Shown one piece after another: positions 21,349-58,936 of a DNA stretch of 61,734 nt (the first letter of the stretch is position 1; every line of letters begins with the position of its first letter). The DNA is from a virus (Duplodnaviria > Caudoviricetes): the IMG/VR virus record IMGVR_UViG_3300008255_002410, positions 1 to 61,734 of that record; one strand, 5' to 3'. The notes beneath the pieces were generated by a model, which saw nothing but the letters and a program-made list of their open reading frames with translations, did not search any database and was not told the origin of the DNA. A program made the position numbers and the translations under genes.

Positions 21349-21770
21349 CAGGTTTCACGTATCTCGCCAGTTGATCCTATTGTAAAGCTGTCCGAAGCGA
21401 ATCCAGCAAACTCTATGACGTCACCTTGTTTTGGTGGCTCTACGGTGTTGATCTCTACTGTTTGGTTCGAAGGCATCTCAAACAGCCAGGGCTCCAAGAT
21501 AGCCCCGTTAACGCTGACAAGAAGTAGGGGTATGACGTAGACCTTGGTTGTTGTAAACAGCCTGCGAACCCCATTTGCAACTTCTACTGTGGTGAACTGA
21601 AAAGGCTTTAGCACTGATGGAAACGTAAAAACCCGGAGGTCTCTACTGAAGTCCAAGTCTTCTGTGACTTTGAGCCCGCCCAAGGTCACCAGGTGTGTCG
21701 GCATGTCCCCTGTACCCGGAACTGTTACAGAGAATGGAATTGAAGTAATCGTGAAAACTTGGCGAATCAT
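21348..21770 (-). CDS. Virion/baseplate-like protein
   Basis: ATGA overlap with the 946-aa gene; ANGVRRLF...LVSVNG...PP..GDV repeat. Confidence 0.65.
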   Translation of the reverse strand: MIRQVFTITSIPFSVTVPGTGDMPTHLVTLGGLKVTEDLDFSRDLRVFTFPSVLKPFQFTTVEVANGVRRLFTTTKVYVIPLLLVSVNGAILEPWLFEMPSNQTVEINTVEPPKQGDVIEFAGFASDSFTIGSTGEIRET

Positions 21771-24607
21771 AGCTTTATGTACATCGCATCGACAACATCC
21801 CCCGGTACAGCAACCCCGAGAAACTTGATTCTTCTGTTGTTCAGGATTTGTATAGGAACTGTAAGTGGTGAAGCCCAAACAGTATTCAGGAAGACCAGGA
21901 CGAATTGGGTGTTGAATTCCTGTGAAGCTTCATAGACAAGGTCGTCACCGAGGACTTGCTGATCATTCAGAACAAAGTTTGCTTCGACCAGAAGAGAAAC
22001 AGAGAAAAACATGTCTCCAGCTAACGGCGCTAAGTTGAATTTTACAAGATCAGTTCCTACCTCTTGATACCCGTCAGGGTTATCCAAGTCATCAGTGAGG
22101 AACTGCTTTAACCAGTTTTTGAAAATGGCACAGGACCCTGCAACGAAATGCTCTGTGGTGTGAAACTCTTGACGCACTCCATCGGGGGATTCAACGAGTG
22201 GCCGGTTAAACGCGATTGGGCTTAGTCCTGGAATCCAAGGTAGCGGGTTAGCAACAACAAGAATTGGGTCCAAGTTACGGCTTATTCCAACTGGGGTTGT
22301 AACTTTGATAGGGTAAACACCTGGAAGCACACCCGCGGGGATTGTAGCCAGGATCGTGGTGTTGTTTTGTATTGCAAAGACAAGACTGATTTCTCCCAAA
22401 GCTACTTGTGTAGCTCCAGAGAATTTATGCCCCTTCACCACAATCTGAGTGATTACGTTCCTGAACGTCAGATAAGGATTTACTGAGACCACGTCCAGAA
22501 CTTCTTCCTGGGCTTCCTCTGGGGGTGGTTGTGTGACTGCAAAGGTGAATGCTCTTTCAGTAATTCCCGGTGGGTTCTCTGCTACTGCCGAGAACTCAAA
22601 CACTCCAGCAGTTGTTGGTTGCCCCAAGAGTAAGCCCGCACGGTTGAGTGCTATTCCAGCGGGGAGCTCGCCCACCTTGGAAAAGTCTAAGGGTGTAGTT
22701 CCAGTAGCTACGATCTGCTTGGAGTAGTCAACCCCCAAGACAGCTTCGGGGAGTGTTGTTGTAGTAATTGTAGGAACAACGCCTGGCGTTCCTTGAACCC
22801 AGGAATTGCTATTCCAGATCCAAAGGTCATTAAGCAGCCCATTACCTACCCCGCCAGTAAGAACCACTTGACTATAGTTTGGGTCGTAAGACATTCCAGC
22901 CAGTGACCTGGGTAAGGGCCCTTCACTCAGGAGCTCAGTCCAGTTGCTACCGTCCCATTCCCAGAAGTTGCTACCGAGGAGTGTTCCGTCAGTATCTGCA
23001 CCACCAAAGAGGACTAAGGTTTCTCGAGTTTCATGCCAGACCATCCTGGCACCTTTCCGGGCTGTTGGATTAGTCACAGGGGTTCGGTTCTGCCAGGCGC
23101 CTGATGTGGTCAAGACCCATGTTTCAGCAAGGACACCTACGCCGGTTGCTCCACCAAACAGTACAATCTCAGCACGCACTGGATCATATCCAGCAGAGTA
23201 GTCAATAGTTCCACCTGTGGGGGATCCTGATGTAACTAGGTCTACCCAAGTTTGCCCATTCCAACCGCGTGCCAGGATAGAGGCATAGCCATTTCCAGCT
23301 AGACCCCCCAGATAAACAACCAGTTCACGACCAGAGTCGTAAACCATGGACCCAAACATGGAGAACCCCTCACGAGGCGAATCTCCTACCTCAAGGTGGC
23401 CTACTTTTTCTACCCAGGTTTCCCCGTCCCACTCCCAGAGGTCTGTCAATTGGTTGTGTCCACCAAACATGACAGTGACACCACGAGAAACGTCATAGGC
23501 CATGGCATGGCCATATCGACTAGGCGGTTCTGTACCTGGGTTTTGATTCACCCATCCATTTTTGTCTAGCTCCCAAGTACCGCTCAGGTTAGCCTCGGTG
23601 ATCTGTCTCTTTCCTGAAAAGATGATGTGCTTGTTTCTGGCAGAGTCATACACCATAGGTGCCCCAAATCTTGGAGTTGGTGCAACCCCGGCAATCCAGG
23701 CAGACCCATTCCAGGTAAAAGGTCTAGCTAGAGTCTCTTCAGTTCTGCTTACTCCACCAAACGTAACAATGATCTTGTTTTGAAGATCATACAGACTACA
23801 TGATCCATGAATCGTCTCAGGAGCCTTTCGAAGCTCAGTCTTTTTGACCCAGCCTTCGCCCCCGTATTCCCAGGTGTCTTGAAAGATAGCTCCATCTGAA
23901 GCTGGTCGATGCCCCCCAAAGGCCAAGAGCATGGAAGTGTCAATGTTCGTGACAAGCACAAATTCTTCACACGGAAGAGGTAGCGTAACCAGTCTTTCAG
24001 ACCAATCGTTTCCGTCCCATTCCCACATTTCCTGTGGGTAGCCTCCTCCGTCATACCCCCCGAGCAGTATTACTCGAGACCTTGCTGGGTCCCAAGCCAT
24101 CTTATGGCCTTTTCTGGGACCGGGGTGGCTTGTCTCGGGAGCGATCTCTGCCCAGGTCAGCCCCGTGGTATCGAGTTCCCAGGTATCCTCCAGGACAACT
24201 GCCCCCGCGCCAACTCCGCCATGAAGCACGACCTTGGCTCTACTTGGGTCATAGGCTATAGCAAAAGAGTGTCGAGCGGTTGGGGCAGTCTGCGGTAGCT
24301 GCTGCTCCCACGCTTCTGTAGCACCATCCCACAGCCAGGTATCCCCTAGTAAACTCCCGTCTGTGCCTACTCCACCAAAAAGCAGACTAAGTGTGTTGCT
24401 GATTGAAACCGCAGCATGATTAGTCCTGGCATCTGGAGCAACGAGCAAGTCCTTTAGACGCCACCCCAGGCTCGCGTGATGAACCCAGGTTTCATCGCTG
24501 TAGCTGTTGTTGGTAAGAAGACCACCAAACAGTACAAGCGCTGAGCCAGCGGGTGGGTAAGAAGCGGCTAAGGAGGCTCTGCGTCTAGCTGAAGGTTGCA
24601 AGTTCAA
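21767..24607 (-). CDS. Kelch-repeat virion protein with Ig-like (He_PIG, IPT/TIG-like) domains
   Basis: About 12 LFGG...TWxWDG repeats; ITTTTLP.A..G..YS...A.G..P...LPAG..L putative Ig domain; V..V.P...G..F....V TIG-like domain; PDGVRQEF repeat. Confidence 0.8.
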   Translation of the reverse strand: MNLQPSARRRASLAASYPPAGSALVLFGGLLTNNSYSDETWVHHASLGWRLKDLLVAPDARTNHAAVSISNTLSLLFGGVGTDGSLLGDTWLWDGATEAWEQQLPQTAPTARHSFAIAYDPSRAKVVLHGGVGAGAVVLEDTWELDTTGLTWAEIAPETSHPGPRKGHKMAWDPARSRVILLGGYDGGGYPQEMWEWDGNDWSERLVTLPLPCEEFVLVTNIDTSMLLAFGGHRPASDGAIFQDTWEYGGEGWVKKTELRKAPETIHGSCSLYDLQNKIIVTFGGVSRTEETLARPFTWNGSAWIAGVAPTPRFGAPMVYDSARNKHIIFSGKRQITEANLSGTWELDKNGWVNQNPGTEPPSRYGHAMAYDVSRGVTVMFGGHNQLTDLWEWDGETWVEKVGHLEVGDSPREGFSMFGSMVYDSGRELVVYLGGLAGNGYASILARGWNGQTWVDLVTSGSPTGGTIDYSAGYDPVRAEIVLFGGATGVGVLAETWVLTTSGAWQNRTPVTNPTARKGARMVWHETRETLVLFGGADTDGTLLGSNFWEWDGSNWTELLSEGPLPRSLAGMSYDPNYSQVVLTGGVGNGLLNDLWIWNSNSWVQGTPGVVPTITTTTLPEAVLGVDYSKQIVATGTTPLDFSKVGELPAGIALNRAGLLLGQPTTAGVFEFSAVAENPPGITERAFTFAVTQPPPEEAQEEVLDVVSVNPYLTFRNVITQIVVKGHKFSGATQVALGEISLVFAIQNNTTILATIPAGVLPGVYPIKVTTPVGISRNLDPILVVANPLPWIPGLSPIAFNRPLVESPDGVRQEFHTTEHFVAGSCAIFKNWLKQFLTDDLDNPDGYQEVGTDLVKFNLAPLAGDMFFSVSLLVEANFVLNDQQVLGDDLVYEASQEFNTQFVLVFLNTVWASPLTVPIQILNNRRIKFLGVAVPGDVVDAMYIKL

Positions 24608-36567: not shown

Positions 36568-39176
36568 TACTCCTCCAGGAGAGTTAGAGGCTCATCCACT
36601 CTGTGGATGACTGCAACCTTGGTGCTTCTGTAGATGTGTTCTCTCCGGATGCTGTGCTCCAAAAGCTTGTAGTTCCATCGGTTTTTGAAGTCCGTTACGT
36701 AATAGGTGTTGCTTCCACTCTTTACCATCTGCCCCCGACCAAGAATCTGAAGAAGCTCGTCAATTGCTTTTCCGCCACCAGCCGGGATGATAGCCTTCAG
36801 ACTTGGAAAGTCGATTCCGACATTGAAGATCGGGGTAGAGATCAGAATCGCTCTCTTCCCTTCATTGAAAGCTTTCCTTTCAGCTGTTCTCGTAGCGACC
36901 TTATCATCTCTATCCAGGAAGACCGCATCAAAGTCTCCGAGCAAGTTCAGAAGCTTCAGTCCATGCCGCTTCGTGTCCACAGGAATCCAGGTAGGAAACT
37001 TTTGCTCAACGTACCACTCGCAGTCGTTTCTGATAATCCACTTGACGTAGGGGTTATTTTCTACCCCCCAGAGGAATGCCCACTGGTAGTAAGCCAGTCG
37101 AAGCTTGTTCCTCTGCCGCATGATTGCCCTGGCCTTGAAGAAGTCCAGGTCCTTCAGATCGTGGTCCCCTTTGAACGTAAACGGGTTTCCGGGAGGTGGA
37201 TGCGCCAGGACCTCCTCATCTGTTGCAGGTGGGATGCTTCGGGGAAAGATATGTGCGGTAGAAATCCTACCAGCTTTTTTTAACTCAGCAGAAGTTACTG
37301 TGGAGATGGTGTAGCCAGAAAGGCCAATTGCAACGCTGTTGCGGTACTCGTCCTTATTGAGTGGGGTTCCAGAAAGGAAAATACGGTGCCTGGTTGGAAT
37401 CTTTTCAAGGACTTTGCTGACGCTCTCCGCTGAGGCGCATTGGCAATTATGTACTAGAATCCCGTTAGCAAAATAGTTGTTGTTATCTGCTACTTCGAGA
37501 TTATAGACAAAACTTGGACCAGACAGCTTTGGAGGTTGTTTAAGACCTCCGAGTTCTTGAATCTCAATACTTTCCACCCAAGTCCAGCCAAGGCAGAGTC
37601 TTTCTTCTTGTCTGCTGCCTTCCGGGAGTAATGGCTGCCCCCATCCACTTCGATTGCAACTTTGAGGCTTGTGTTTCCAATGTCTATTTTGTAGTATGTT
37701 GGGTAACCCGGTCTTCTCGGTCCCAGCGATACAGGGACCTCCATTTTCCAGCCCAGTGCAGAGGCCAGAAGGAGCTGCGCTGTGGTAGGTCCTTTTCCAT
37801 TTCCCCCACGAACAAGAGGCTTCCACTCTCCAAGGCGCCTTTTGGTAGCGATTTTCTCCTTCACACCCAAGATGTGTATAGGGTTGGCCCGTGTCATTTT
37901 CTCGGACAGTATCTTTTTGTGCCTGTCTGTAAGTTTCCGACTTCGTCTTTCTTGATCCATCCATAAGTCCCGATGTGTGGTAGAGCAATAGGCCCGATTT
38001 GATCGAACTCTTTCTCTGGAAAATAGGCCTTTTTGTCCATGTAATTGGACCTGTTTCTGGCATATGATACAAGGCAGTGTTACTGTCTGTGCCCGGCTTT
38101 TCCGTTGTGCAGTTTCGCAAGGCTTGGAACAGGTCTTCCTGGGAGAACTGCTTGTAAATAGTTTCTGGCACTGAAGACAGGTTGCCTGCCAAGTGTTGTT
38201 GATAAACATGCTTTTCTCCTTGCAGTGGCACTCTGGTAATCAGAATACTACCACAAGTAAGATTCTCCGAAGTAATATACTTGGACCTGTTTCCTATCTT
38301 TACAAGGATTGGGTGATTAGGGGTACAGGAAAGCGATGTTCCATTAGCTAGTTGTAGACGAATGAGTCTTGAGGCATGGCGCTTGAAAACCCGGAGAACA
38401 GTTTTCTTTTCAATTTGCCCTGTTTGATGATTTATTGATTCAACAAAGTCTCCGGAGACATATGTCTCAATTGCCTTGTTTCCAACGAGAGTCCCTGCTG
38501 GCAAACATTCATCAAGCATCACTACGCCTGTCTTTTCAGCAAGTTCTTCGAACTTCGGCTTGTAGCGGTACTTGTAGAGAGTCTGAACCATTGCCACAGT
38601 AACTCGCTTCTCATCCCATTTCGACCAGCCTCGGATACTCCCCAAGGGCTCCTGTAGGTGCTTGGTTATTTCCTCCACAAGCTGATCAAATAGATCACTT
38701 GAATTGACCAGAATGAGGATGCTCTTGTTATGGTGGAACTTGGCCAGTGCCGACATGACCCGGGTTTTTCCAGATCGGGTAGCTCCCTTCAGGATGCCTC
38801 GGGTATCCGCCCGAAGTGCGGCTTCAATCATTCGGATCTGCCAAGGAAATAAAGACACCCCGTCGTTGAGGTAGTTTGCCGGAATTGGTGTCGTTGTCCC
38901 GCAGGGCTCAGGTGTCCCCTCTACCTGGATTACCAGGTCATGTAAGTTTCCCTGAGCCTGTAGTCTTGGAAGCAGTCCCGTGAGAAAACGACCATGCTCG
39001 GAAACAAGGCTCTTGTACCCGTCCCAGAGCCTGTTGCCTTCTGCATCCCGCATCTTGTAGCGGGGATTGAACTGGTAGCCTGCCGGATAGGCACGAAGGA
39101 TCCTACGAGCGATTTTCTCCTCCTCGTCAGATGCCTCGACAGCCTGGCAGAACACAGGACCCCACTTGATTCGCAT
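36567..39176 (-). CDS. UvsW-like SF2 helicase containing an intein
   Basis: Y..G.WDG N-terminus, ATRSGKT, motif II LDE|CQ split by the intein, LSGTP, G.D.P.L, Q.LGR. Confidence 0.88.
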   Translation of the reverse strand: MRIKWGPVFCQAVEASDEEEKIARRILRAYPAGYQFNPRYKMRDAEGNRLWDGYKSLVSEHGRFLTGLLPRLQAQGNLHDLVIQVEGTPEPCGTTTPIPANYLNDGVSLFPWQIRMIEAALRADTRGILKGATRSGKTRVMSALAKFHHNKSILILVNSSDLFDQLVEEITKHLQEPLGSIRGWSKWDEKRVTVAMVQTLYKYRYKPKFEELAEKTGVVMLDECLPAGTLVGNKAIETYVSGDFVESINHQTGQIEKKTVLRVFKRHASRLIRLQLANGTSLSCTPNHPILVKIGNRSKYITSENLTCGSILITRVPLQGEKHVYQQHLAGNLSSVPETIYKQFSQEDLFQALRNCTTEKPGTDSNTALYHMPETGPITWTKRPIFQRKSSIKSGLLLYHTSGLMDGSRKTKSETYRQAQKDTVRENDTGQPYTHLGCEGENRYQKAPWRVEASCSWGKWKRTYHSAAPSGLCTGLENGGPCIAGTEKTGLPNILQNRHWKHKPQSCNRSGWGQPLLPEGSRQEERLCLGWTWVESIEIQELGGLKQPPKLSGPSFVYNLEVADNNNYFANGILVHNCQCASAESVSKVLEKIPTRHRIFLSGTPLNKDEYRNSVAIGLSGYTISTVTSAELKKAGRISTAHIFPRSIPPATDEEVLAHPPPGNPFTFKGDHDLKDLDFFKARAIMRQRNKLRLAYYQWAFLWGVENNPYVKWIIRNDCEWYVEQKFPTWIPVDTKRHGLKLLNLLGDFDAVFLDRDDKVATRTAERKAFNEGKRAILISTPIFNVGIDFPSLKAIIPAGGGKAIDELLQILGRGQMVKSGSNTYYVTDFKNRWNYKLLEHSIRREHIYRSTKVAVIHRVDEPLTLLEE
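37446..38507 (-). mobile_element. Intein (354 aa) in helicase motif II
   Basis: Block A CLPAGTLV, block B CTPNHP, blocks F/G VYNLEVADNNNYFANGILVHN|C. Confidence 0.93.
37490..38209 (-). CDS. Nested out-of-frame Vsr/DUF559 (EDxHD-type) endonuclease inside the intein
   Basis: AAGGAG SD 6 nt before the ATG; CxxC Zn-type repeats; IDIG......AIEVDG.SH......D..KD..L...GW.VLRF.N catalytic signature; frame shifted by 1 relative to the intein. Confidence 0.88.
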   Translation of the reverse strand: MFINNTWQATCLQCQKLFTSSSPRKTCSKPCETAQRKSRAQTVTLPCIICQKQVQLHGQKGLFSRERVRSNRAYCSTTHRDLWMDQERRSRKLTDRHKKILSEKMTRANPIHILGVKEKIATKRRLGEWKPLVRGGNGKGPTTAQLLLASALGWKMEVPVSLGPRRPGYPTYYKIDIGNTSLKVAIEVDGGSHYSRKAADKKKDSALAGLGWKVLRFKNSEVLNNLQSCLVQVLSIISK

Positions 39177-43304: not shown

Positions 43305-46300
43305 TTATTTGGTCCCGTAGTAGTTCATGTCCTTCGGATCCCCCCATGTTTTACAAGCCCTGATATCCACTTTCGTAGGAACTTGCATCCAGGTGGGAGC
43401 GTCTTCCATGATAGTCTTTTGTATCTGGTATACCTGATCCCTTTCTTTTGGGGGGCACTCAGTTCCAATGTCGTCATGCACCAAAAGAATGGGCCTGGCC
43501 TTGAACCCGTGTTTTTCCAGAAAGTTCCAGAGTCTTACTATCGCTTTGAGTGTGATATCTGACGCAGGTCCTTGTACCTCATGATTGAAGCCTTCTCTGA
43601 AGGCTGCGTTTATAAGACTTTGCTTGTTGGACCAAACACCAGGGAACTTTCGAATACGCCCATCTACATTTTGTACGTACCCGTTCTTTCGGATGAACTC
43701 GTGGCATGCCTCGATGTAGTACTTGACCTCAGGATAACGGGCAAAGATCCCCATTACAATCTTTGCTGCTTCTCGATCACTGATTTCCAGAGCAAGTGCC
43801 AATCCGTGAACTGTCTTTCCGTAGATGATGGAAAACAAAGCTGTTTTGGCGCGTTGCCGCATCTCATATGTGACTTTCTCCGGTGGTATACCAAAGATGG
43901 TTGAGGCGGTCATCCTGTGGACATCCCCCTTGCCGGTTATCAGATCAAGAATGAGTTGACGACACTTCGTGATGGACGCCAGTACCCGAAGCTCAATACC
44001 TGCATAGTCAGCATCAACGATGTAACCACCTTCCCAAGATGAGATGAACATCTTCTTGAGGGTGATCCCTTTTCGAAGAGTTCCATCTTTCAATAGAACG
44101 TAATCACACCCAGGTTCATGGAAAATCTCCATGGGCTCACCATGATTTCTGTCATCGTCCTTTCTGGTGAAACCTAGACAAACAAGCTGCTCCTCCCCGA
44201 GCTCTTGTTCGAGACTGGTAAACTCGCTCTTTGTCAGTTCAAAGAAGTAGGGCCTGGAAGGAATGTTCATCAGGTTAGGATCCCTGGAGGCCAACCTTCC
44301 TGTTCTTGGGCCTGCAGCAGTGAAACTGGTATGGACCTTTCCATCCCACTGGATATGCCCGTCTTCTGAATCCAGGAAAGAGTCGACAAAGGTTCCCTTT
44401 GCCGTACCTACCTTGCTCCACTTGAGGAGTAACCTTGGTAGCCCTTTGTGCTTGTGCGCCAGGTTCTCCAAAGCTACGGCGTCTGTCGAGTAATCCTTCC
44501 AGGAGAGCTTGTCCAAGGGGAGAAGCCCACTGGTTATCTTCTTTTGACCTCCTTCAGTCAGTCGGAAACCACCTGTCTCTTCATATTCCTTACCAGAGAG
44601 ACGATAGCCCAACCTTCCGTATAGCAACTCTGCAACTTGAGCCCCGGAATCTGGGTTAAACTCGGGCCAGTCATTGAGTTCTGGCTTCTTCAGGATGTCA
44701 GCTCGTAGTCGGTCCAACTCTTGTTGAAAGTGCCCTTGAGCGTAAGTGAGAAACAACCTGTCAACTTGGACTCCTCGAGCCATCATCTTGGACAGCACTG
44801 AGAAGGCGGGCTCCAAGGTCTCCTCATACACCTGCATTGTTCCCCGCTTCAAAACTGCGGGCGTTTCAAACTTCTCCTCCAGCCAGCGTGTTGCGTGGGC
44901 GTCAACACCATTGTACATGGCCAATCCACCAACAACTTCACAGGTATCTCGAGTTATTGGCGCCGGCTTGATCGGTTTCTTGTGAACGGTTTTCTCTCCG
45001 GTCTTGGTCGTCTCTGTCCACTGACTTGCTCGCACTGCCTTTACCAACAGCTCTTTAATCTTGGCCTGTGCTGCTTCAGTCGCCTGGTTGAAATCTTGAG
45101 TAGCTTTGAATACCTTCCGGAGATAGCGCCTTCCACTTTCAAGTGCCTTCGTCTGAAGGGGTGCCAGGTATTCGCTCAAGTCCTGAGAGTAAGCAACATT
45201 GACTTCCCTTGTCTTTTCTACATCCAGCTCCTGCTGATACACGATAAGCGGAATATCTCCGTACCTACGGTCTTTTTTCTTGAGTCCTCGGAGATACGTC
45301 TCTGAAAGCTCTTTCCAGCCCCGGTAAGGTGTTTTCCAGGAGAGAAGTTCCAGGTTATGTCGAACTGTTTCATCTCTTTGTGCGTCCAGGTGCAGTGTGT
45401 CCAGAACACGTCCAGCCAACTCCACTCCAAGGTGAGACCACAACACCTGATACTCGTAGTAGACGTTGTGCACTACCTTGGTGAGATGCTCGGCACGAGC
45501 AAACTCCCTGATGTATTCGAGGGCCTCTTCCCTCTCTGAAACTGTTAATGGAGACTGCTGATGAAAAAGCGGAACGACAAAGGTTCGGTAGGGTAGATCA
45601 TCAACAGGAGGCCCATAACCTTCTCCCCAGGAGAAGCCACAAGAAAGAACTTGAAAGCCAGGCTTTTCTGGCCGTAGCCCGGTAGCCTCAAAGTCAAAGG
45701 CTACCTTCTTTGGGGTAGCATCCAACATCAAGGCCATCTCCTGCCGGACCTCATCTATTGTCACGCAGATATGGACGTTGTCCGGAAGAACGACTTTTGG
45801 TGCCCCGTTTCTTGAAATCTCCAGAACGGTGTTCAAGTCATCGGCAAATTCGCCTAGACTTTGTGGGTTCTTTTCTCGTAGAAGCTTTGCTGGATGCCAG
45901 GTTGGAACATAGTAAACACCCCTCCGCTCAAACCATTTTCCTCGGTTGTTTGCAACGGAACTACCTTTTCCAATTGATCTAAGCGCTGTAGCTCCAGCTA
46001 GCAAGACAACCTTTGGTCTGGCCGTCTTGATTTCTGCAGCCAGGGCAGGTGAGCAAGCCTTGATAACTGCTTCGTCAGGGGTGTTGTTGTTTGGTGGACG
46101 ACACCTTACCGCATAAGTGTAACGAACCCTGGAGCGGTCGAAACCTACTTTTTCCAAAGCGTTCTCGAGGGCATCCCCGGAATCGCCACAGTTGTGAACT
46201 ACAAATCCGTTGGCAAGGAAAGTTCCAGTCGTTGTCTTGACATCTACAACAAGTTTGGGTCCTGCGGGGTAGATACTTTGTACTTTGGCCTTGGCTCTAA

Positions 46301-47183
46301 CTGTACCCCGAATTTGCATCGGATTTCTTTGGAGTACAGACTCAAAGTCTGAAATGAGTCTTTGGGCTGGGCAAAGTGAGAGGAGTCTAATTGCTTCTTG
46401 TGGTCCCCCCTTAACTCCAACTCTTCCACAAGTGTTGTCTTTGTACCTAGCCTCTTCTCGAACTCTGAGTTCGAAGCCACGCTCCTTGAGTAGAGTCTCT
46501 GCTCGATCAAGTAGGGGACCTAGATTCTGGGAAAAACCGATGTGGCCTCTTGAGTGGATGTTGTCTTTCTTTGACCCAAGAATATGACCCTCCTCGTCAA
46601 GAAAACCAGCAAGCCAACCGGCGTCAAAAGAGGGTTCAATATGTGTAGGAGGGACTAGGTAGATTAGAGAGGATGCTCTCTTTGTGGTGTTCCTTGACTT
46701 GTTCTTTCGCCACAGTGACTGCAACTGATCAAGACGAAGCCACTCGGCCTTTCTTGTTCCTTTGGTAAGAACTCGGTGTTCCGGGGTTCCAGTAAGGTGT
46801 CTCTGCTCTGTGGCTACAGTCCAGCATTGAGCTGCTCGGTGGTGAACTTCTAGTATTTCAGAAATCCTCCACCTTCTGGGTTGGAACTTGCTTGCTCCTG
46901 AAGTACTGGGTCGGCAATGTTCGTCTACTGCAATGAGACGATCTCCGACTTTTGCTTCTCCAAGAGGTTTCCACTTCAAGTCTGCGTAGAGAATTAGAGT
47001 ACTCTCCTCTAGGCAGAACGGTTTTCCCTGGGCATCCTCACGATCTCCAGGAGCTTCTCCGACAACCAAAAGATCCGGTTGGTCCAGAGGACCCCGGCCT
47101 TTCATCTTGGGGGAGTGACAACCAGTATCCCGAAGGGGACACTCGGGACACTTCGCCCAGCTCGCGAATGGGCGAACAATCAT
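43305..47183 (-). CDS. polA: Family A DNA polymerase with N-terminal family-4 UDG-like domain, 3'-5' exonuclease and an intein
   Basis: CxxC, GEAPG..ED, CRPP.N, HPA (UDG); DFEATG, HN..YE, YNGVDA (exonuclease); TGRLAS.DPNL.NIP, ADYAGIELR, R..AK...F..IYG, LVHD (polymerase); GGAGG SD. Confidence 0.93.
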   Translation of the reverse strand: MIVRPFASWAKCPECPLRDTGCHSPKMKGRGPLDQPDLLVVGEAPGDREDAQGKPFCLEESTLILYADLKWKPLGEAKVGDRLIAVDEHCRPSTSGASKFQPRRWRISEILEVHHRAAQCWTVATEQRHLTGTPEHRVLTKGTRKAEWLRLDQLQSLWRKNKSRNTTKRASSLIYLVPPTHIEPSFDAGWLAGFLDEEGHILGSKKDNIHSRGHIGFSQNLGPLLDRAETLLKERGFELRVREEARYKDNTCGRVGVKGGPQEAIRLLSLCPAQRLISDFESVLQRNPMQIRGTVRAKAKVQSIYPAGPKLVVDVKTTTGTFLANGFVVHNCGDSGDALENALEKVGFDRSRVRYTYAVRCRPPNNNTPDEAVIKACSPALAAEIKTARPKVVLLAGATALRSIGKGSSVANNRGKWFERRGVYYVPTWHPAKLLREKNPQSLGEFADDLNTVLEISRNGAPKVVLPDNVHICVTIDEVRQEMALMLDATPKKVAFDFEATGLRPEKPGFQVLSCGFSWGEGYGPPVDDLPYRTFVVPLFHQQSPLTVSEREEALEYIREFARAEHLTKVVHNVYYEYQVLWSHLGVELAGRVLDTLHLDAQRDETVRHNLELLSWKTPYRGWKELSETYLRGLKKKDRRYGDIPLIVYQQELDVEKTREVNVAYSQDLSEYLAPLQTKALESGRRYLRKVFKATQDFNQATEAAQAKIKELLVKAVRASQWTETTKTGEKTVHKKPIKPAPITRDTCEVVGGLAMYNGVDAHATRWLEEKFETPAVLKRGTMQVYEETLEPAFSVLSKMMARGVQVDRLFLTYAQGHFQQELDRLRADILKKPELNDWPEFNPDSGAQVAELLYGRLGYRLSGKEYEETGGFRLTEGGQKKITSGLLPLDKLSWKDYSTDAVALENLAHKHKGLPRLLLKWSKVGTAKGTFVDSFLDSEDGHIQWDGKVHTSFTAAGPRTGRLASRDPNLMNIPSRPYFFELTKSEFTSLEQELGEEQLVCLGFTRKDDDRNHGEPMEIFHEPGCDYVLLKDGTLRKGITLKKMFISSWEGGYIVDADYAGIELRVLASITKCRQLILDLITGKGDVHRMTASTIFGIPPEKVTYEMRQRAKTALFSIIYGKTVHGLALALEISDREAAKIVMGIFARYPEVKYYIEACHEFIRKNGYVQNVDGRIRKFPGVWSNKQSLINAAFREGFNHEVQGPASDITLKAIVRLWNFLEKHGFKARPILLVHDDIGTECPPKERDQVYQIQKTIMEDAPTWMQVPTKVDIRACKTWGDPKDMNYYGTK
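46191..47015 (-). mobile_element. Intein (275 aa) with a LAGLIDADG motif in the UDG domain
   Basis: PF|CLEESTLI ... TPEHRV ... WLAGFLDEEG ... TGTFLANGFVVHN|CG. Confidence 0.92.
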
Positions 47184-47194
47184 TTTCATCCTCC

Positions 47195-51303: not shown

Positions 51304-51517
51304 GATTCCCTCCTTTCCTGATTGCAGCCCTCAGTCGTTGTCAGCCCCTTGTCGACTGATGGTTGCAATCCTTTCCAGTACAAAGATGCCCACTCCCAAC
51401 GTGAAGTAGAGTCCCATGGACCCTCCTCTTGAGAACGGGTGGCCGACATCCTTCTTGTACCTCGAAAAATGCTCCCTAACAGTGTATCCTGGAGAACACG
51501 CTCCTACTCAACTTGAT

Positions 51518-51533
51518 TTGACGCCGGCGTCAA
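51518..51533. repeat. 16-bp palindrome TTGACGCCGGCGTCAA, copy 6
   Basis: Exact match overlapping the AAGGA SD of the RNAP ATG at 51542. Confidence 0.95.
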
Positions 51534-51541
51534 GGAACCAA

Positions 51542-54500
51542 ATGCCAAAAGACGATCCCTCTCAGGAGCCTGCCAAGCTGGTCCAGCATAAGGACATCTT
51601 TCAGCAGATCCAAAAGTCTGTTACTTCTGGCTACGAAAGTCTCTTCCCCATAATAGGAAGAAACCGAGAACTTCGCGCCCATAAGATCTGGGTAGAGGAT
51701 GATAAGGACCCTCACGACTACAAGGGCCAAGAATCCACCAAGCTCAACGGGGGTACCTGGGGTGTTCCCGTCTACGGAGACTTTGAGCTGGTAGACAAGG
51801 GTACAGGGCAGACGGTTGACCGGAAAGAAAGAGTCAAGTTTGCAACCCTGCCAAAACTGACCCCAAGGTACTCCTTTATCGTCAAAGGAAGTGAGTACCA
51901 GGTTTCCCACCAGATGCGGAGAAAACCTGGGGCTTACACCCGCATCGGAACTGATGGCAACATTGAGGCGATGTTTAACTCGAGCATCGGCTCCAACTTC
52001 AAAATGCTCCTTGACAAGGACTCTGGTAAGTTGCACCTGAACGTGGGTTCATCGAATACCAGACTCTATCCCATACTCAAGCACTTGGGCGTGAGTGAAC
52101 AGGAAATGGTCGACCATTTTGGTCCTGAAGTCGTGGAGGTCAACAGGAGAGCTGTAGGTCATCCGGACAACGAGATTCGGGACGTATTAAAGCTCTACAA
52201 GAACCTTCATTTCAACAAGGAGCCTGAAAGCTTTGAGCATGCTGTAGAAGGTTTGAAGACTTACTTTCACGGGAACACGGCCTTTGATCCTGACGTCACC
52301 CACATCAACTTTGGAGAAGCGCACACGAACGCTAACCCGAAGCTTCTCCTGCTTGTGGGCAAGAAGCTGCTCAACATATCAAGAGGCACAGAGGAACCAG
52401 ATGATCAGGAGTCTGTTATTTACAAGACTCTGCATGGAGTAGACGACTTTCTAAGAGAGCGAATCGGTCTTCGGTCCGAGAGACAAAGACTTCACAAGAA
52501 GGTCATGAACACCCTGGATCGAAGAGACTCGATCTCGGACATCATCAACCACCAGATCTTCACTCACCCTGTTGAGAGCCTCTTCACCCAGACCGAGCTT
52601 GCTAATCTGGAAGATCAGACAAACCCACTTTCGATGCTAGGCCGAGCCCACCAGGTAACGATCCATGGTCCTGGCGGAATCTCAGATGAGCACCAGGTCA
52701 GCACTGAAGCTCGAGGTGTTCATCCTTCGCATCTTGGGTTTCTTGACGTTCTTCAGACCCCTGAATCCCATCAAGTCGGGGCCGTCATGAGGCTTCCGCT
52801 CGGATCAGTAAAAGACGGAAATGTCTGGAAGACGGAGCTTGTCAACCACTCTACTGGACAACGGGAGCATCTCACTGCCAAGCAGGCACATGACCACACA
52901 GTGGCTTTTGCTGATGACTTCTACCCAAACAAGGATGGAAGCGTTAGACCAGTTGCTGCCAATGGTCTGGTCAGAGCACTACGTCAAGGGAAGTTCGTTG
53001 AAGTAAGACCTGATGAGGTGGATTACAGAATTCCAACGCCCAGGTCGATGTACGGGCTTTCGTCCAACATGTCCCCGTTCCTGTCCAGCAATTCAGGGAA
53101 GCGGGGAATCATGATGGCCAAGATGGCGGAGCAAGCTTTGCCCCTGGTCAATCGGGAAGTCCCGTTGGTTCAGGTTGTAGCGGGCCCTGGGGGGCAGACT
53201 TACGAGGCCTTGGTTGGCCAAGGATTCACAACCAGAGCACCAACCAATGGGACCGTGATTCATGTCGGAGACGGGGAGATTCATATCCAGTCAGGGGGGA
53301 AGGTTCACAAGGTTCAGTACTACGACAACTTCCCTCTGAACGCGAAGCACTTCTTTCATTCAGAGCCCACGGTAAAGCCTGGTGACGTGGTTCAGAAAGA
53401 TCAATTGCTTGCCGAGCTTTCTCATACGCGAGACGGGGTTCTTTCATTAGGTGTCAATGCACGGGTTGGGTATCTCAACTACAAAGGCGTCAACATTGAA
53501 GACGGTCATGTTGTAAGAGAGGGCTTTGCCAGGGAGCAGTTGAAGTCCTCTCACCTGCACAAGGAAAGCTTTCTAGCAGGGGATAAAACACTTCTGGACG
53601 TGAAGAAGTTTCGTGCCCACCACCCGCTACATCTGACAGAAGAGCAGGCCAGGAAGCTGGATGACAGAGGCATTGTTCGAATCGGAGAGACTGTTCATCC
53701 AGGAGACACCGTCATCGCGGGTATGACCCCCAACGTGCCGAAGGTGGAGGACCAGGTCCTCAAGAACCTACACAGGTCTTTAGTGAAGCCTTGGAGCAAT
53801 GCTGCAGTGACCTGGGACCACCATACCTCAGGCAAGGTCGTCAAGATTGGTCGACATGGAAAGAGAATTGATGTCTACGTGCGGACTGAGGAGCCACTGG
53901 TTGAAGCTGACAAGATTGTAGGTCGTTTTGCGAATAAGGGTGTTGTAGTAAAACTAATCCCAGACCACGAAATGCCACACACCGCTGATGGTCGTCCTCT
54001 TGATGTTCTCTTCAATCCGCACGGCCTTCCATCCCGACTGAACACCGGACAGATCCACGAAACCCTGGCTGGCAAGATTGCTGAGAAGACTGGAAAACCT
54101 TTTTTGGTAGAGAATTTCAAGGCGGGTCTGGACTACAAGAAGTGGATTGACGACGAACTCACCAAACACGGACTTTCAGACACTGAGGAAGTCTTTGACC
54201 CAACAGACGGTAGTTCCCTGGGTCAGATTCTGACGGGTCGTCAGTACATCATGAAGCTGGACCATTCGGTCTCCAAGAAGTTCAATACGAGAGACCGGGC
54301 CGGGTACACGATGGACAGGACTCCGGTTCGTGGATCAGACGAAGGGGCGCAGGCTATCGATCCTCTGACGTTGTATGGGATGCTCTCTCACAATGCTAGA
54401 ACACTGATGTGGGAGCAGGCCGCGTTAAAGTGCTTAGTTGGACACATGAAGGTATGTACCGATCAGGGAGACTTGACCATTAGTAGGATCGTTCGAGGAA

Positions 54501-57500
54501 GACTTCCTGTTAAAGTGCTTTCTATGCAAAAAGACGGCACTTTTGCTTGGAGGAGGGTTGTTGACTATTTCAGGTACCGTACAGACCATGCTACTCGTCG
54601 GGTTGAGGTTACTTCTTCTGAGCTGCTAGACCTTGGGTACTCTACTGGGTACAATGAGGACCGCCATTTGGTTTGTACTCCAGAGCATAAGATCCTTACT
54701 CCCGTGGGAAAGGTCAGATCTGCAGATTTGTTTGTTGGTGACTTGGTTCTAGTTAAAGCAACTACGCCATCACCAACACAAGAAGCAGTCCTGGTAGGTA
54801 CACTACTTGGTGACAGCTCTCTACGTCCAAGATCCCCACTAAGCTATATATCCATCTGTCACGGTGAAGACCAAATCCAGTACCTTTGTTGGAAAATGTC
54901 TTTGCTTTCCGGCCTGTTTGGAGAAAAAGCAATTGGTGTTTCCAAACCTGCGGGGTACGGAGTAAAGAATGGTAAACCTGTGTTCCATGCCAGAAGCATG
55001 TCGCTACCGTGGTTTGCTGAACTAGAAGAGCAGCTTTATTCCTCAGACTCACAGGATATCAAGTGGCTGCCAAAGTATAGAAAGCGAAGAAAGGTAATTA
55101 CCAAAGCCTTCCTAGACCGGTTAGACCTTAGGTCTCTTGCGTTCTTTTATATGGATGATGGGTGCTCCTCTTATAAACGATCAACACTAAGAGGGAAAAC
55201 CAAACGCTGGTATACCAACGACAAGCTTGCAGACGGCTATGTTGAGGTCAGGTTTTGTGTTGGGGAGATAACCCTAAAGGAGATTGACCTTCTTAGAAAA
55301 AGAATGGGGGAGATTATCGGGATTACTCCATCTGCACCAAAGTTCATAAACGGCGTCAGGCTAGCCTACATCGGGTATCGAGGAGCAGCTGCTTTAGAAT
55401 TTCTTTTTGCTGTTGCGCCATATATACATCCTTCAATGTCCTACAAGATGAAGGCAGCTACGCCAAAGGTCCAAGAAGCGCTGCTTTTACTTGTTGGTTC
55501 CAAGATGAAGGAGCTTGAGTCTAAAGCTGAAGTTAGAGCATGCCAAGTCAGACTTACTTCAATTAAGCCGACTACAATTGGTAAACGCACCAGAGATGCC
55601 AAGTTTGTATACGACTTGGAAGTCGAGGAGACACATAACTACGTTTCCCAAGGCCTAATAGTAAGCAACTCAGAGCGGAACGATGACATCTGGAGGGCTA
55701 TTCAGACAGGTTCTCCACTTCCTCCACCGAAGCCGACCTTCGTTTGGGACAAGTTCATGGCGCTGCTTCAAGGCATGGGCCTAGATGTAAAAAGGGAGGG
55801 CTCAAGACTCAAGCTCTTGCCTACTACAGACCAGCAAGTTCTTTCCAGATCAAAAGGTGCCATACGGCTGCCGTTTACACTCCGAGCCAAGGACCTGGCG
55901 CCTATGGAAGGTGGCCTCCTTGACCCGGAGCTAACTGGTGGAATTGGGGGATCGTCCTTCAATCACATCGAGCTTCACCAGCCGTTTCCTAACCCAGTCT
56001 TTGAAAAGCCGATCAAGGCAATTCTCGGGCTTACAGGCCCTCAGTTCGACAGCCTATTGGCTGGTACCTCTTCTGTTGTTGATGGACAGCTCGTGCCGCA
56101 TGCCGGCGGAAAGGTGGCAGGTGAAGGCCTGCAGGAACTGCTTGCCAGGATCGACCCCAAGCTGCACCTGGACCAGACACTGGCTCAAGCAAAAACAGCT
56201 CGAGCCAATGACCTGGACAGGCTTAACAGGAAGGCCAGATACCTGAAGGCTCTGGTTGACAACGACATCCGCCCGGAAGCTGCTTACCTGAATTCAGTCA
56301 TCCCAGTTGTGCCCCCAAAGTTCAGGCCAATCCACCCGATGGCGGATGGCTCTCTCTACACGGCAGATCTCAACTACATCTACAAGAACTTGATGATCGG
56401 GGCAGAACAGCTTGGTGAAGGAAAAGACATCCTTCCGCAGAAGCATCTGGCCCCGCTTCGCCAGGAGATTTACCATCACCTGAAGGGCCTGGCGGGCCTG
56501 GAGCCCCTGGCGTCAGCTCAGGACGGAAGAGAGTACCACGGGATATTAACGGACATCCGTGGCAAAGGAGCCCCGAAGGAGGGAATTTTCCAGTCCAAGC
56601 TCATTGGTAGAAGACAAGACCTCTCTGCTCGCTCCACAATTATCTCTGGCCCAGAACTAGGTCCACACGAAGTTGGCCTTCCCAGAGAGATGCTGAAGAC
56701 CCTCTTCCGGCCATTCATTATCCGAAGACTTTTCGGAATGGGTGTACCCCCTCTTCGAGCCCAAGAGATGATTGATCAGGAAGACCCTGTTGCTGTGAAG
56801 GCCCTGGAACAAGAAGCCAAGGAACGTCCTGTGATTCTTGGAAGAGCGCCTAATCTTCACAAGTTCAGTGAACTGGCTTTTTACCCGGTGCCTGTGGACG
56901 GGCTGGCAATCAAAGTGCATCCGCTAGTTTTACCTGGAATGGGCGCCGATTTTGACGGCGACTCGGCGTCAATTCATGTCCCAGTAACTCCAGCTGGAGT
57001 AGCAGAATCCAAGCGTCTCCTGGCCACACACTCAGACAACCTCAGAAACCCAGGAACCGGAAAGCTCATGATTCTTCCCATGCGGGAGCATGTCCTGGGT
57101 CTGTACCGTCTGACCCTTCCGGGAGAGAAGACCAACCTCTCGTTCTCCAATTTTGGCGAAGCCAGAGAAGCCCTCAAGAAGAAGCAGATTCACTACAACG
57201 ACGTGGTCAACATCGGGGGGCAGAAAACCTCAGTTGGCCGTGCTCTGGTCAACGCGCTTCTTCCAGAAGAACATCGCGATCATAACCGGGTCTTTGATTC
57301 CAGGGGTATCAGAGAGGTTGCTAGCAAGATTGCTAACACACATCCACATGATTTTGGTCGGATCATGAATGACCTGAAGGACCTGGGTGCCAACCATGCC
57401 TACAAGAGTGGAGCTACGATAACCTTCAAGGACCTTGAGCCCTTTCGAAAAGAGCGAGACCAGATCTTGGATGTTGCCAAGAAAAAGGTACGCTTGGCGA

Positions 57501-58936
57501 AGTTTGATGACCGACTGTCTGAAGACCAGAAGGAGCAGGCTACCATTGAGGCTTACACAGAAGCCTCCAAACAAATTGACCGTATGCTGCAGGAGAAGGT
57601 GCCGGCGTCCAACAGCCTGGCCGAGATGGTTCGCTCTGGATCAATTGGTTCATGGCAGCAGCTTCGTCAAGTCCTGGCTGCTCCAGTCCTCATGGAAGGG
57701 ATGGGGGGCAAACCCATCCCGATTCCAGTAACCAAGTCCTACGCTGAGGGACTGTCCTCGGCTGAGTACTTCATCCAGAGCTTCGGTGCCAGGAAGGGTG
57801 CTGTTGACAAGTCCAAGCAGACATCAGTTCCTGGGTACTTCGCCAAGCAGCTGGTCAATTCCATGATCAACCTGGTTGCTGAGGATCACCCATCTGAAGA
57901 TGAAGGTCCTGTCCCAGGAATCAAGCTTGGAATAGACGACCCTGACATCCACGATCGATATCTGGCTCAAGACGTTCGGGATGTAGCTAGTGCTGGAGAA
58001 CTTATAACTCCAGACCTTCTCAGGAGAGCCAGAAACTCTGGGCATCAGGAGCTCGAGGTGCGTTCTCCGCTCACCAGTCTAGCTGCTCATGGTATCTACC
58101 CAAAAGACTACGGGCTGCTTCCGGGCGGGAAACCGATTTCTGCTGGGGATAACGTGGGCGTGATGGTGGCGCAGGCGATGAGTGAACCTGCCACACAAAT
58201 GTCGTTCAAATTAGCGCACGGCGGAGGAGCCGTTGGAGCACAAACCCTTTCCGGTTTCCGAAGAATCGAGCAACTCTTCAACATCAACGAGAACCTACCT
58301 GGGCGAGGGGTCCTTTCTGAAGTTCCTGGTGTTGTTGAGTCCATCACGCCTGCTCCGACAGGTGGCCACGTTGTGGTGATCTCTGGGGTTCCTCATCGAG
58401 TTTCCTCAGGGCTGAACCTGAGCGTTAAGCCAGGGGATACAGTTGAGGTCGGGCAGGCTCTCTCTGATGGTATTACTCACCCCAGAGACCTGCTCCGGTT
58501 GAAGGGACTTAGACCTGCTCAGGACTATCTGGTAAACGAGATTCTCAAGGCTTACCATGAGCAGGGCTTCAAGCTGAAGCGGGTCATCGTTGAAGCCGCG
58601 GTCAGGTCAATGACAAATTTGACGCATATCACAGACCCGGGAGAGGACCCGGACTATGTTCCTGGAGACTATGCACCCATCTCGATGGTGGAGCACAAGA
58701 ACCGCAACGGTGGAACCATCCGGCATACCCCTGTACTCAAGGGCATCCACAGCCTGCCGTTGTATCGAGACGAATGGGTTTCTAACTTGAACTTCGAAAA
58801 CTTGAAGGAAACGATTCTCGAGGCTGCAGCCAAAGGTCGATCCGAGGACATCCATGGTTATAATCCATTGGTGGCTTACGCACATGGGTCTGAGTTCGGA
58901 AGAGTGCCTAAGCACGCAAAGAAAGGTGTTTATTGA
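51542..58936 (+). CDS. Fused beta-beta' DNA-directed RNA polymerase (2464-aa precursor, ~2051 aa after splicing)
   Basis: Beta motifs: FIVKG.E, R.VHPSH.G, TPE, QA.PL, N.ED, DK..GR..NKGVV, NP.G.PSR.N.GQ, YIMKL.H. Beta' motifs: PV.PP..RP, DLN..Y, G.R.D.S.R, RAP.LH, GADFDGD, GARKG..D....T...GY, AQ...EP.TQ. Confidence 0.95.
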   Translation: MPKDDPSQEPAKLVQHKDIFQQIQKSVTSGYESLFPIIGRNRELRAHKIWVEDDKDPHDYKGQESTKLNGGTWGVPVYGDFELVDKGTGQTVDRKERVKFATLPKLTPRYSFIVKGSEYQVSHQMRRKPGAYTRIGTDGNIEAMFNSSIGSNFKMLLDKDSGKLHLNVGSSNTRLYPILKHLGVSEQEMVDHFGPEVVEVNRRAVGHPDNEIRDVLKLYKNLHFNKEPESFEHAVEGLKTYFHGNTAFDPDVTHINFGEAHTNANPKLLLLVGKKLLNISRGTEEPDDQESVIYKTLHGVDDFLRERIGLRSERQRLHKKVMNTLDRRDSISDIINHQIFTHPVESLFTQTELANLEDQTNPLSMLGRAHQVTIHGPGGISDEHQVSTEARGVHPSHLGFLDVLQTPESHQVGAVMRLPLGSVKDGNVWKTELVNHSTGQREHLTAKQAHDHTVAFADDFYPNKDGSVRPVAANGLVRALRQGKFVEVRPDEVDYRIPTPRSMYGLSSNMSPFLSSNSGKRGIMMAKMAEQALPLVNREVPLVQVVAGPGGQTYEALVGQGFTTRAPTNGTVIHVGDGEIHIQSGGKVHKVQYYDNFPLNAKHFFHSEPTVKPGDVVQKDQLLAELSHTRDGVLSLGVNARVGYLNYKGVNIEDGHVVREGFAREQLKSSHLHKESFLAGDKTLLDVKKFRAHHPLHLTEEQARKLDDRGIVRIGETVHPGDTVIAGMTPNVPKVEDQVLKNLHRSLVKPWSNAAVTWDHHTSGKVVKIGRHGKRIDVYVRTEEPLVEADKIVGRFANKGVVVKLIPDHEMPHTADGRPLDVLFNPHGLPSRLNTGQIHETLAGKIAEKTGKPFLVENFKAGLDYKKWIDDELTKHGLSDTEEVFDPTDGSSLGQILTGRQYIMKLDHSVSKKFNTRDRAGYTMDRTPVRGSDEGAQAIDPLTLYGMLSHNARTLMWEQAALKCLVGHMKVCTDQGDLTISRIVRGRLPVKVLSMQKDGTFAWRRVVDYFRYRTDHATRRVEVTSSELLDLGYSTGYNEDRHLVCTPEHKILTPVGKVRSADLFVGDLVLVKATTPSPTQEAVLVGTLLGDSSLRPRSPLSYISICHGEDQIQYLCWKMSLLSGLFGEKAIGVSKPAGYGVKNGKPVFHARSMSLPWFAELEEQLYSSDSQDIKWLPKYRKRRKVITKAFLDRLDLRSLAFFYMDDGCSSYKRSTLRGKTKRWYTNDKLADGYVEVRFCVGEITLKEIDLLRKRMGEIIGITPSAPKFINGVRLAYIGYRGAAALEFLFAVAPYIHPSMSYKMKAATPKVQEALLLLVGSKMKELESKAEVRACQVRLTSIKPTTIGKRTRDAKFVYDLEVEETHNYVSQGLIVSNSERNDDIWRAIQTGSPLPPPKPTFVWDKFMALLQGMGLDVKREGSRLKLLPTTDQQVLSRSKGAIRLPFTLRAKDLAPMEGGLLDPELTGGIGGSSFNHIELHQPFPNPVFEKPIKAILGLTGPQFDSLLAGTSSVVDGQLVPHAGGKVAGEGLQELLARIDPKLHLDQTLAQAKTARANDLDRLNRKARYLKALVDNDIRPEAAYLNSVIPVVPPKFRPIHPMADGSLYTADLNYIYKNLMIGAEQLGEGKDILPQKHLAPLRQEIYHHLKGLAGLEPLASAQDGREYHGILTDIRGKGAPKEGIFQSKLIGRRQDLSARSTIISGPELGPHEVGLPREMLKTLFRPFIIRRLFGMGVPPLRAQEMIDQEDPVAVKALEQEAKERPVILGRAPNLHKFSELAFYPVPVDGLAIKVHPLVLPGMGADFDGDSASIHVPVTPAGVAESKRLLATHSDNLRNPGTGKLMILPMREHVLGLYRLTLPGEKTNLSFSNFGEAREALKKKQIHYNDVVNIGGQKTSVGRALVNALLPEEHRDHNRVFDSRGIREVASKIANTHPHDFGRIMNDLKDLGANHAYKSGATITFKDLEPFRKERDQILDVAKKKVRLAKFDDRLSEDQKEQATIEAYTEASKQIDRMLQEKVPASNSLAEMVRSGSIGSWQQLRQVLAAPVLMEGMGGKPIPIPVTKSYAEGLSSAEYFIQSFGARKGAVDKSKQTSVPGYFAKQLVNSMINLVAEDHPSEDEGPVPGIKLGIDDPDIHDRYLAQDVRDVASAGELITPDLLRRARNSGHQELEVRSPLTSLAAHGIYPKDYGLLPGGKPISAGDNVGVMVAQAMSEPATQMSFKLAHGGGAVGAQTLSGFRRIEQLFNINENLPGRGVLSEVPGVVESITPAPTGGHVVVISGVPHRVSSGLNLSVKPGDTVEVGQALSDGITHPRDLLRLKGLRPAQDYLVNEILKAYHEQGFKLKRVIVEAAVRSMTNLTHITDPGEDPDYVPGDYAPISMVEHKNRNGGTIRHTPVLKGIHSLPLYRDEWVSNLNFENLKETILEAAAKGRSEDIHGYNPLVAYAHGSEFGRVPKHAKKGVY
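54431..55669 (+). mobile_element. Intein (413 aa) with a two-motif LAGLIDADG endonuclease in the RNAP beta C-terminal region
   Basis: ALK|CLVGHMKV ... CTPEHK ... LVGTLLGDSSL ... LAFFYMDDG ... VYDLEVEETHNYVSQGLIVSN|SE. Confidence 0.93.

Follow-up and report, generated by a model that had tools for sequence, protein, structure and literature searches.

Inteins whose endonuclease is read outside the splicing frame are rare but published. Gosselin et al. (2025; 10.1101/2025.01.02.630785) report actinophage inteins in genes for DNA polymerase, minor capsid protein, terminase and thymidylate synthase that carry a frame-3 EndoVII-like or an antisense LAGLIDADG or VSR-like endonuclease, and propose that free-standing endonuclease genes invade inteins. 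Phillips et al. (2026; 10.64898/2026.09.14.751524) describe a cyanobacterial dnaX intein with a +2-frame LAGLIDADG endonuclease, marked by a disordered in-frame center, a Shine-Dalgarno (SD) sequence and frame-specific ratios of nonsynonymous to synonymous substitution rates (dN/dS); both preprints cite Gorbalenya (1998) for such inteins. Dassa et al. (2009; PMC2677866) found that the two parts of split inteins can flank a Vsr-like or GIY-YIG endonuclease gene that stands free, and that such a gene runs with its 3′ end 6 to 69 bp into the intein-C coding region in 15 loci. Here we analyze an intein in a superfamily 2 (SF2) helicase gene of a tailed-phage contig (Caudoviricetes; the window is the whole stretch analyzed, 61,734 nucleotides, positions 1 to 61,734 of IMG/VR record IMGVR_UViG_3300008255_002410), within which a nuclease gene is overprinted in the +1 frame. 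We consider it highly probable that this is a non-canonical dual-coded mobile intein in helicase motif II (inserted at DE/CQ, the slash marking the insertion point), which splices in cis, carries an internally initiated nuclease and homes. A first-pass annotation of the window had taken the architecture to be undescribed, a view that the out-of-frame and antisense endonucleases of Gosselin et al. and Phillips et al. overturn: the element is of a known kind, and what is added here is that overprinting is the dominant state of a whole nuclease clade.

On the minus strand, a single open reading frame (ORF) of 869 amino acids (aa) encodes the helicase precursor (Pfam ResIII and Helicase_C) and stays open through the intein (Table 1). 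The intein occupies helicase residues 224-577 and has the splicing blocks CLPAGT..., TPNHP and VYNLEV...VHN/C. Pfam Intein_splicing (PF14890) covers residues 240-577 (47.2 bits for the full helicase ORF, 50.2 bits for the intein alone; cut-off 35.8), and PT-HINT matches the intein at 33.4-35.9 bits (cut-off 27.7), while the center of the intein gave zero Pfam family matches in the host frame. Across 50 related inteins (alignment A2), C1, T62, H65 and N354 are invariant and H353 is nearly so; C1, the TxxH of block B, the C-terminal His-Asn and the +1 Cys are residues that we take to be those of class-1 intein splicing. AlphaFold2 (run with A2) modeled intein residues 1-95 at a pLDDT score (predicted local distance difference test) of 95-98 and residues 301-354 at about 86-98 with one weak block; residues 100-300 scored 41-61 and were nearly without secondary structure. 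The N and C parts of the intein do not lie on separate ORFs as in a split intein, and no in-frame endonuclease of the canonical bifunctional type was found in it, the endonuclease being offset by +1 and the host-frame center disordered. An orthologue without the intein, P0051 (517 aa), reads uninterrupted through ...LLLDE/CQCASS..., i.e., an empty site. By this sequence comparison, the intein is polymorphic for presence and absence at the exact DE/CQ site.

The nested ORF matches DUF559 (PF04480; E = 3.3e-14, 53.1 bits, cut-off 20.6), a family carried by all 49 of its 49 database relatives. In a 23-sequence nuclease alignment (A1), E187, D189, D200, K203 and the stretch G211-W-x-VLRF-x-N219 are invariant and H193 is nearly invariant, and the window nuclease retains all of the invariant residues. 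The EDxHD motif is defined by the pattern E..D...H......D..K (Taylor et al. 2011; PMC3239194), and the catalytic E/D/H/D residues of the A1 profile align with those of PDB structures 3hrl (3.4e-11) and 3r3p (0.012); the same profile also gave a weak match to a MYM-type zinc finger (0.015). Within the zinc-finger region, alignment positions C47, C50, C75 and C79 are invariant or nearly so, with His at position 79 in the window. In the AlphaFold2 model of the nuclease (with A1; mean pLDDT 88.9), two small cysteine modules, both beta-hairpins, are followed by a long helical connector and then by an alpha/beta core; the top Foldseek match of the nuclease was the catalytic domain of I-Bth0305I (3r3p; E = 1.4e-3, probability 1.00), followed by the DUF559 protein 3hrl. 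Judged on sequence, the nested ORF is an intact Vsr-like, EDxHD-type nuclease. The first-pass annotation had described a 354-aa helicase intein with intact splicing blocks and a motif-less center, and within it a 239-aa ORF with an AAGGAG sequence, CxxC repeats and an EDxHD core that it assigned to the EDxHD/Vsr-like enzymes; the ORF, the Pfam scans of both frames and the alignments agree with it on each of these points.

Across the intein, the host frame has 0 stops, the +1 frame has 7 (none inside the nested ORF) and the third frame has 16. A host-frame stop can arise solely where a nuclease codon ending in T precedes AA, AG or GA, which left 66 codon contexts for testing; T-ending nuclease codons occurred in 0 of these 66, compared with 46 of 173 in other contexts. 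The host frame was open in 0 of 20,000 synonymous permutations (mean 11.1 stops) and in 0 of 20,000 resamplings with the codon usage of the window (mean 13.3 stops). Dual coding is far beyond chance, and the earlier estimate that a stop-free intein frame would seldom arise by chance is borne out by both randomizations. At its 3′ end, the nuclease gene is constrained in both frames over about 36 codons, nuclease residues 204-239 sharing their DNA with intein residues 303-339. The invariant GWKVLRF segment (G211-N219) lies over the intein strand W310-E318, in which V311 is nearly invariant. Intein block F (F333-V339) is overlain by nuclease residues 234-239 plus the TAG stop, an overlap that the first reading of the sequence had noticed; V334 of that block is invariant and Y335, N336, E338 and V339 are nearly so. 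Across the related loci described below, the median overlap between nuclease ORF and Hint-C match is 61 nt, and the stop of that ORF is TAG in 79 of 106 loci.

Relatives of the element were first visible among sequenced phages, where tblastn with the nested protein matched 40 records, listed under ‘helicase’ features; in Vibrio phages K391 and CP-T1 and in Corynebacterium phage phi673, an annotated helicase reads on across an intein and has the match in its +1 frame. Scans of viral contigs with single proteins (the nuclease or the C-extein) found no relatives, but alignment-based scans did: A1 recovered 405 relatives in IMG/VR and 402 in species-representative genomes, and the best 80 of each were taken. 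Together with the three phage records and the window, these made 164 loci for classification (L004, the window itself, being dropped), which were classed with small hidden Markov models (HMMs), derived from four seeds, for the N and C parts of Hint. Thirty-six of the 164 match the DUF559 core only and are ordinary bacterial DUF559 genes; the remaining 128 match the nuclease well past its catalytic core. Among these closest relatives, the host frame is stop-free over the entire nuclease ORF in 121 of 128 loci, with the nuclease always in +1, so that the open intein frame proposed from the window alone is found in its homologues too. An in-frame nuclease was found in 0 of the 128. Both Hint parts sit in a single unbroken host ORF in 107 of the 121 (92 distinct intein DNA sequences); the other 14 comprise 13 classed as ‘N-only’ plus L125. 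A Pfam scan of 10 of these 14, for which no selection rule is stated, found Hint and Helicase_C in 8, helicase domains only in L050 and no match in L125. The rest of the 128 are four loci truncated by contig ends (open as far as sequenced), one split locus (L121) and two free-standing genes (L118 and L123). Nearly throughout the 107, the insertion site is DE/CH(H), or DE/CQ in the window, a few inteins sitting some residues onward in the same motif. The records of the relatives are named as Chloroflexi, Cyanobacteria, Verrucomicrobia, Ktedonobacter racemifer, candidate-phyla bacteria and two archaeal bins.

Loci in which the intein is no longer contiguous bear on why the host frame stays open. 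In L121, the split locus, what used to be the host frame is interrupted by 23 stops over the length of the nuclease ORF, and stops are likewise numerous in that frame of the free-standing L118 and L123; a mean of 13.0 stops per 196 codons (minimum 2) was counted in the third frame of the 92 distinct loci. Together, these counts indicate that selection keeps the host frame open for as long as the intein is in one piece, and no longer. In L121 (2193-4484; from a Lacinutrix bin), the ORF for Hint-N ends at 2777 and that for Hint-C begins at 3303, with the nuclease ORF at 2671-3438; judged on its sequence, the locus is the same element in split form and resembles a ‘fractured gene’. Two UvrD-type helicases, P0052 and P0053, hold Intein_splicing and DUF559 in a single ORF, in frame, and their DUF559 domains share 41-53% identity with the window nuclease over the core. 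The nuclease family is thus not confined to out-of-frame placement, as had been supposed. P0053 also has a second intein, with LAGLIDADG_3. In L048, L052 and L097, the element lies within helicase-N6/N4 methylase fusion proteins, and L052 has an extra Hint_2 match (residues 989-1032) that may be a second intein. In Proteus phage PM2 (MF001355.1, 101251-103686), the window helicase matches in two pieces, annotated ‘DNA helicase (x2)’ and ‘hypothetical protein’; this helicase gene could be interrupted in another way.

Selection on each frame was estimated by the Nei-Gojobori method from four independent pairs of relatives (71-95% nucleotide identity; chosen greedily from seven candidate pairs), there being no close relative of the window to pair with it. 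In the overlap, dN/dS was 0.06-0.21 in the nuclease frame and 1.2-2.4 in the host frame (four pairs each), and in the flanks it was 0.04-0.21 in the host frame (three pairs; dS was saturated in the fourth). Column entropy in the overlap (92 sequences) peaks at the third codon position of the nuclease (1.65 bits vs. 1.22 and 1.11), a pattern that matches that of the host frame in the flanks. In these close pairs, protein-level selection falls on the nuclease frame within the overlap, and beyond the overlap it falls on the host frame. The hydropathy of the host-frame linker (−1.03) equals that of a null made of the nuclease protein plus stop avoidance (−1.025, P = 0.53), which indicates that the host-frame center is under selection for openness alone. 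Further selection, for a hydrophilic linker, was accordingly rejected, only tiny shifts in composition being seen, and hydropathy was also rejected as the cause of the +1 phase, the third frame being similar (−0.95). The suggestion that both frames are under selection therefore holds in part: the open frame is kept (121/128 loci, against 23 stops in L121), but with dN/dS of 1.2-2.4, the intein frame is merely kept stop-free.

We propose that ribosomes translate the helicase frame straight across the intein, which would give a Hint N-lobe (~95 aa) and C-lobe (~54 aa) connected by a hydrophilic, disordered linker of about 200 aa, this linker being the −1 reading of the nuclease gene, kept stop-free. 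The lobes would dock, and the class-1 intein (Cys1, TxxH, His-Asn and +1 Cys) would excise itself to leave a helicase of about 515 aa with DECQ intact. On the same mRNA, ribosomes would initiate in the +1 frame at the internal AAGGAG-N6-ATG (38209), and the 239-aa product would have zinc-finger modules at its N terminus, then a helical connector, and at its C terminus an EDxHD/DUF559 nuclease (Vsr-like, of PD-(D/E)xK type). As a homing endonuclease, it would cut intein-less helicase alleles at or near DE/CQ, and repair of the break would copy intein and nuclease together into the empty allele. The dual frames, the avoidance of stops, the recurrence of the layout, the selection specific to each frame, the predicted folds and the empty allele are observations of this analysis; splicing, internal initiation, and cleavage with homing are the steps that we infer. 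Several points weigh against this account. The loci were picked by nuclease similarity, and the figure of 121 in 128 applies to the closest relatives only. A strong SD (by a crude rule) is found in only 46 of 92 loci, and the SD of the window lies inside a predicted hairpin that would lower initiation. The dN/dS values come from four pairs and were obtained with a method that makes no provision for gene overlap. Similarity in structure to I-Bth0305I is modest (template modeling score 0.55 on the target, E slightly above 0.001).

A homing cycle predicts decay of the endonuclease once it is fixed, and the hairpin of the window would sequester the SD; both would suit a reading in which the nested ORF of the window is a fossil, carried by a functional intein with a long spacer while the nuclease is no longer made or active. 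We nonetheless regard this as unlikely. The window copy retains all invariant A1 residues, its start, its SD and its full length, the nuclease frame of its relatives shows the low dN/dS given above (0.06-0.21), and the existence of an intein-less orthologue implies that targets remain. It is also conceivable that the nuclease was recruited for a job other than homing, such as cutting the DNA of competing phages or of the host, or controlling helicase production, given that DUF559 is common outside inteins (36 core-only loci in bacterial genomes). However, the nuclease clade is tied tightly and exclusively to one insertion site, helicase motif II, and presence/absence polymorphism occurs at the exact site of insertion, and such a recruitment seems very unlikely to us.

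The start of the nuclease is where the mobile dual-coded intein can be compared with production by programmed +1 ribosomal frameshifting, in which the nuclease would be joined to the N-extein and Hint-N in one fusion product. The two frames share an mRNA, and only half of the loci have a strong SD, as frameshifting would allow, but there is hardly any room for a shift: in the window, an in-frame TGA stands 10 codons 5′ of the nuclease ATG with no alternative start in between, and across loci an in-frame stop lies a median of 39 nt upstream of the first HMM-aligned nuclease codon. A start codon lies close to the aligned N terminus in 88 of 92 distinct loci (ATG in 84), and RNA near the nuclease starts has less structure than windows elsewhere along each gene (mean z = +0.57, P = 2e-6, 88 loci), as it is at genuine initiation sites. 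Because of these start codons, nearby upstream stops and reduced RNA structure, we favor internal initiation and hold frameshifting to be highly improbable. The hairpin predicted in the window has a paired probability of 0.87 and ranks in the top 2% of windows in the helicase gene; an SD-sequestering hairpin was rejected as a conserved regulator, being absent as a trend in the 88 loci, where starts are less structured. The first-pass annotation had envisaged a separately translated and separately regulated nuclease, with its own SD and a weak extended −10 element (38245-38255, minus strand). Translation from its own start is the best reading for the reasons just given, and conservation extends to the start codon (88/92) but not to a strong SD (46/92). 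A simple promoter scan found no site near the nuclease start (region-wide, 2 sites vs. 2.0 expected), leaving the −10 element unconfirmed and regulation from a promoter of its own unsupported.

Compensating indels at the frame switches, named in the first-pass annotation as a possible flaw, are absent from Logan contigs of three further runs (X3, X4 and X5, none of them flagged as a possible source of the window), which show 0 gaps and at most one differing letter over both switch points, these contigs being of low depth (~2-6x) and possibly from one sampling campaign. Although the window is itself a metagenome-derived contig of low depth, the idea that two such assembly errors shifted the in-frame nuclease of a canonical bifunctional intein has negligible probability and is already effectively refuted by those runs, more strongly by the recurrence of the +1 phase in 121 loci (the isolate phages K391, CP-T1 and phi673 among them), and by the avoidance of T ahead of AA/AG/GA codons, which errors would not be expected to produce.

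Table 1. Features of the overprinted helicase intein, in window coordinates
Feature	Position	Strand	Basis
SF2 helicase precursor ORF, 869 aa	36567..39176	-	ResIII + Helicase_C
N-extein, ending ...VVMLDE (helicase motif II)	38508..39176	-	65% identity to intein-less P0051
Class-1 intein, 354 aa: C1, T62xxH65, H353-N354, +1 Cys	37446..38507	-	Gap exactly here in P0051
Hint N-lobe, intein residues 1-95	38223..38507	-	pLDDT 95-98
Host-frame linker, intein residues ~100-300, no stops	37608..38210	-	No Pfam match; pLDDT 41-61
Hint C-lobe, intein residues 301-354 (blocks F and G, VHN)	37446..37607	-	Alignment A2, AlphaFold2
C-extein, starting CQCASAES...	36570..37445	-	77% identity to P0051
Nested +1-frame gene, 239 aa + TAG, putative homing endonuclease	37490..38209	-	DUF559, AlphaFold2, Foldseek
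Nuclease residues 1-80, Cys-rich zinc-finger-like modules	37970..38209	-	C11/C14, C27/C31, C47/C50, C75
Nuclease residues 143-239, DUF559/EDxHD catalytic core: E187, D189, H193, D200, K203, GWKVLRF	37493..37783	-	
About 36 codons structured and conserved in both frames	37493..37600	-	Alignments A1/A2, AlphaFold2
AAGGAG SD, 6 nt 5′ of the ATG at 38209	38216..38221	-	Sequence
Predicted RNA hairpin, 3′ arm pairing with the SD	38215..38262	-	z = −2.7

Elsewhere on the contig (34% complete by CheckV), a plus-strand ORF of 2506 aa (51416-58936) fuses RNA polymerase beta-like (Rpb2) to beta′-like (Rpb1) domains and holds a second intein at about 54650-55669 (Intein_splicing at residues 1079-1418, 31 bits, under the cut-off) with an in-frame LAGLIDADG_2 at residues 1125-1255, so that the same phage has one canonical and one overprinted intein. 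A minus-strand family A DNA polymerase (43305-47189, 1294 aa) has a uracil-DNA-glycosylase-superfamily domain at residues 335-452, and genes for RecA-like, 5′-3′ exonuclease, DnaB-like and second DEAD-box helicase proteins lie near it, forming a replication module. Two very large Kelch-repeat proteins (2941 and 946 aa) are encoded on the minus strand at 11059-19884 and 21767-24607.

Taken more broadly, the chances appear about even that the zinc-finger and EDxHD clade is overprinted almost obligately, in +1, on helicase inteins at motif II (its carriers being phages, bacteria and a few archaeal bins), with GWKVLRF, the best-conserved motif of the nuclease, and the stop co-encoded with the C-lobe strand and block F, and that overprinting is stable and common. 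If so, nuclease and splicing domain would be welded into a unit that is hard to separate or to shift into frame, the overprinted state would be a stable, common outcome and not a rare accident, and the split (L121), in-frame (P0052 and P0053) and free-standing (L118 and L123) relatives would form a living series for endonuclease entry and for the origin of fractured genes. The locus is a functional same-strand gene overlap of 720 nt maintained over >100 diverged loci, with an internal control in that the host frame fills with stops once the intein is split. Overprinting would be a third outcome beside fracture and in-frame landing, and our counts suggest that it is common for one nuclease family. 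Gene callers annotate the helicase only and thereby miss such endonucleases; in the phage records inspected, the match falls under a ‘putative helicase’ feature. The unconstrained linker of about 200 aa shows the size of unstructured insert tolerated by a Hint domain, which may be useful for intein engineering, and the nuclease, whose front end is made of zinc-finger modules, is a candidate for a site-specific enzyme.

Set beside the published systems, the window most resembles the inteins with out-of-frame or antisense endonucleases, which likewise combine a host-frame splicing domain, an open and poorly structured center and an endonuclease ORF in another reading with its own start, under purifying selection in the endonuclease frame. 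None of the papers searched, taken without their supplements, describes an EDxHD/DUF559 endonuclease encoded on the sense strand at +1 within the inteins of helicases, or how widespread it is; the VSR-like endonucleases of Gosselin et al. are antisense and in non-helicase genes, in contrast to the sense-strand +1 EDxHD/DUF559 gene here. The present layout also differs from the published out-of-frame inteins in being dominant in a large clade (121/128) instead of rare, and in the constraint on both frames over the last 36 or so codons of the nuclease. I-Bth0305I, encoded in a group I intron of recA in phage 0305phi8-36 (Taylor et al. 2011; PMC3239194; 3r3p), is the best structural match and its motif aligns, but it is intron- and not intein-encoded, and sequence similarity to it is weak (E = 0.012). 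The elements of PMC11855218 (2025) also hide an endonuclease in another frame of an insertion that is open in the host frame; they have no splicing domain and their insertion is thought to be retained as a protein loop, whereas here an intact intein would remove the insert. Fractured genes (PMC2677866) share a same-strand Vsr-like nuclease between intein N and C parts, a 3′ overlap and residence in DNA-metabolism genes, including helicases, and the model of Dassa et al. offers ‘fracture’ or ‘in-frame insertion’ only, without an overprinted state; the intein frame of the window is unbroken, so that one polypeptide would splice in cis. Finally, as in canonical bifunctional inteins, the endonuclease has its place between the two Hint lobes (N and C), and a conserved catalytic motif is targeted, but in the window the endonuclease forms no part of the polypeptide of the intein.

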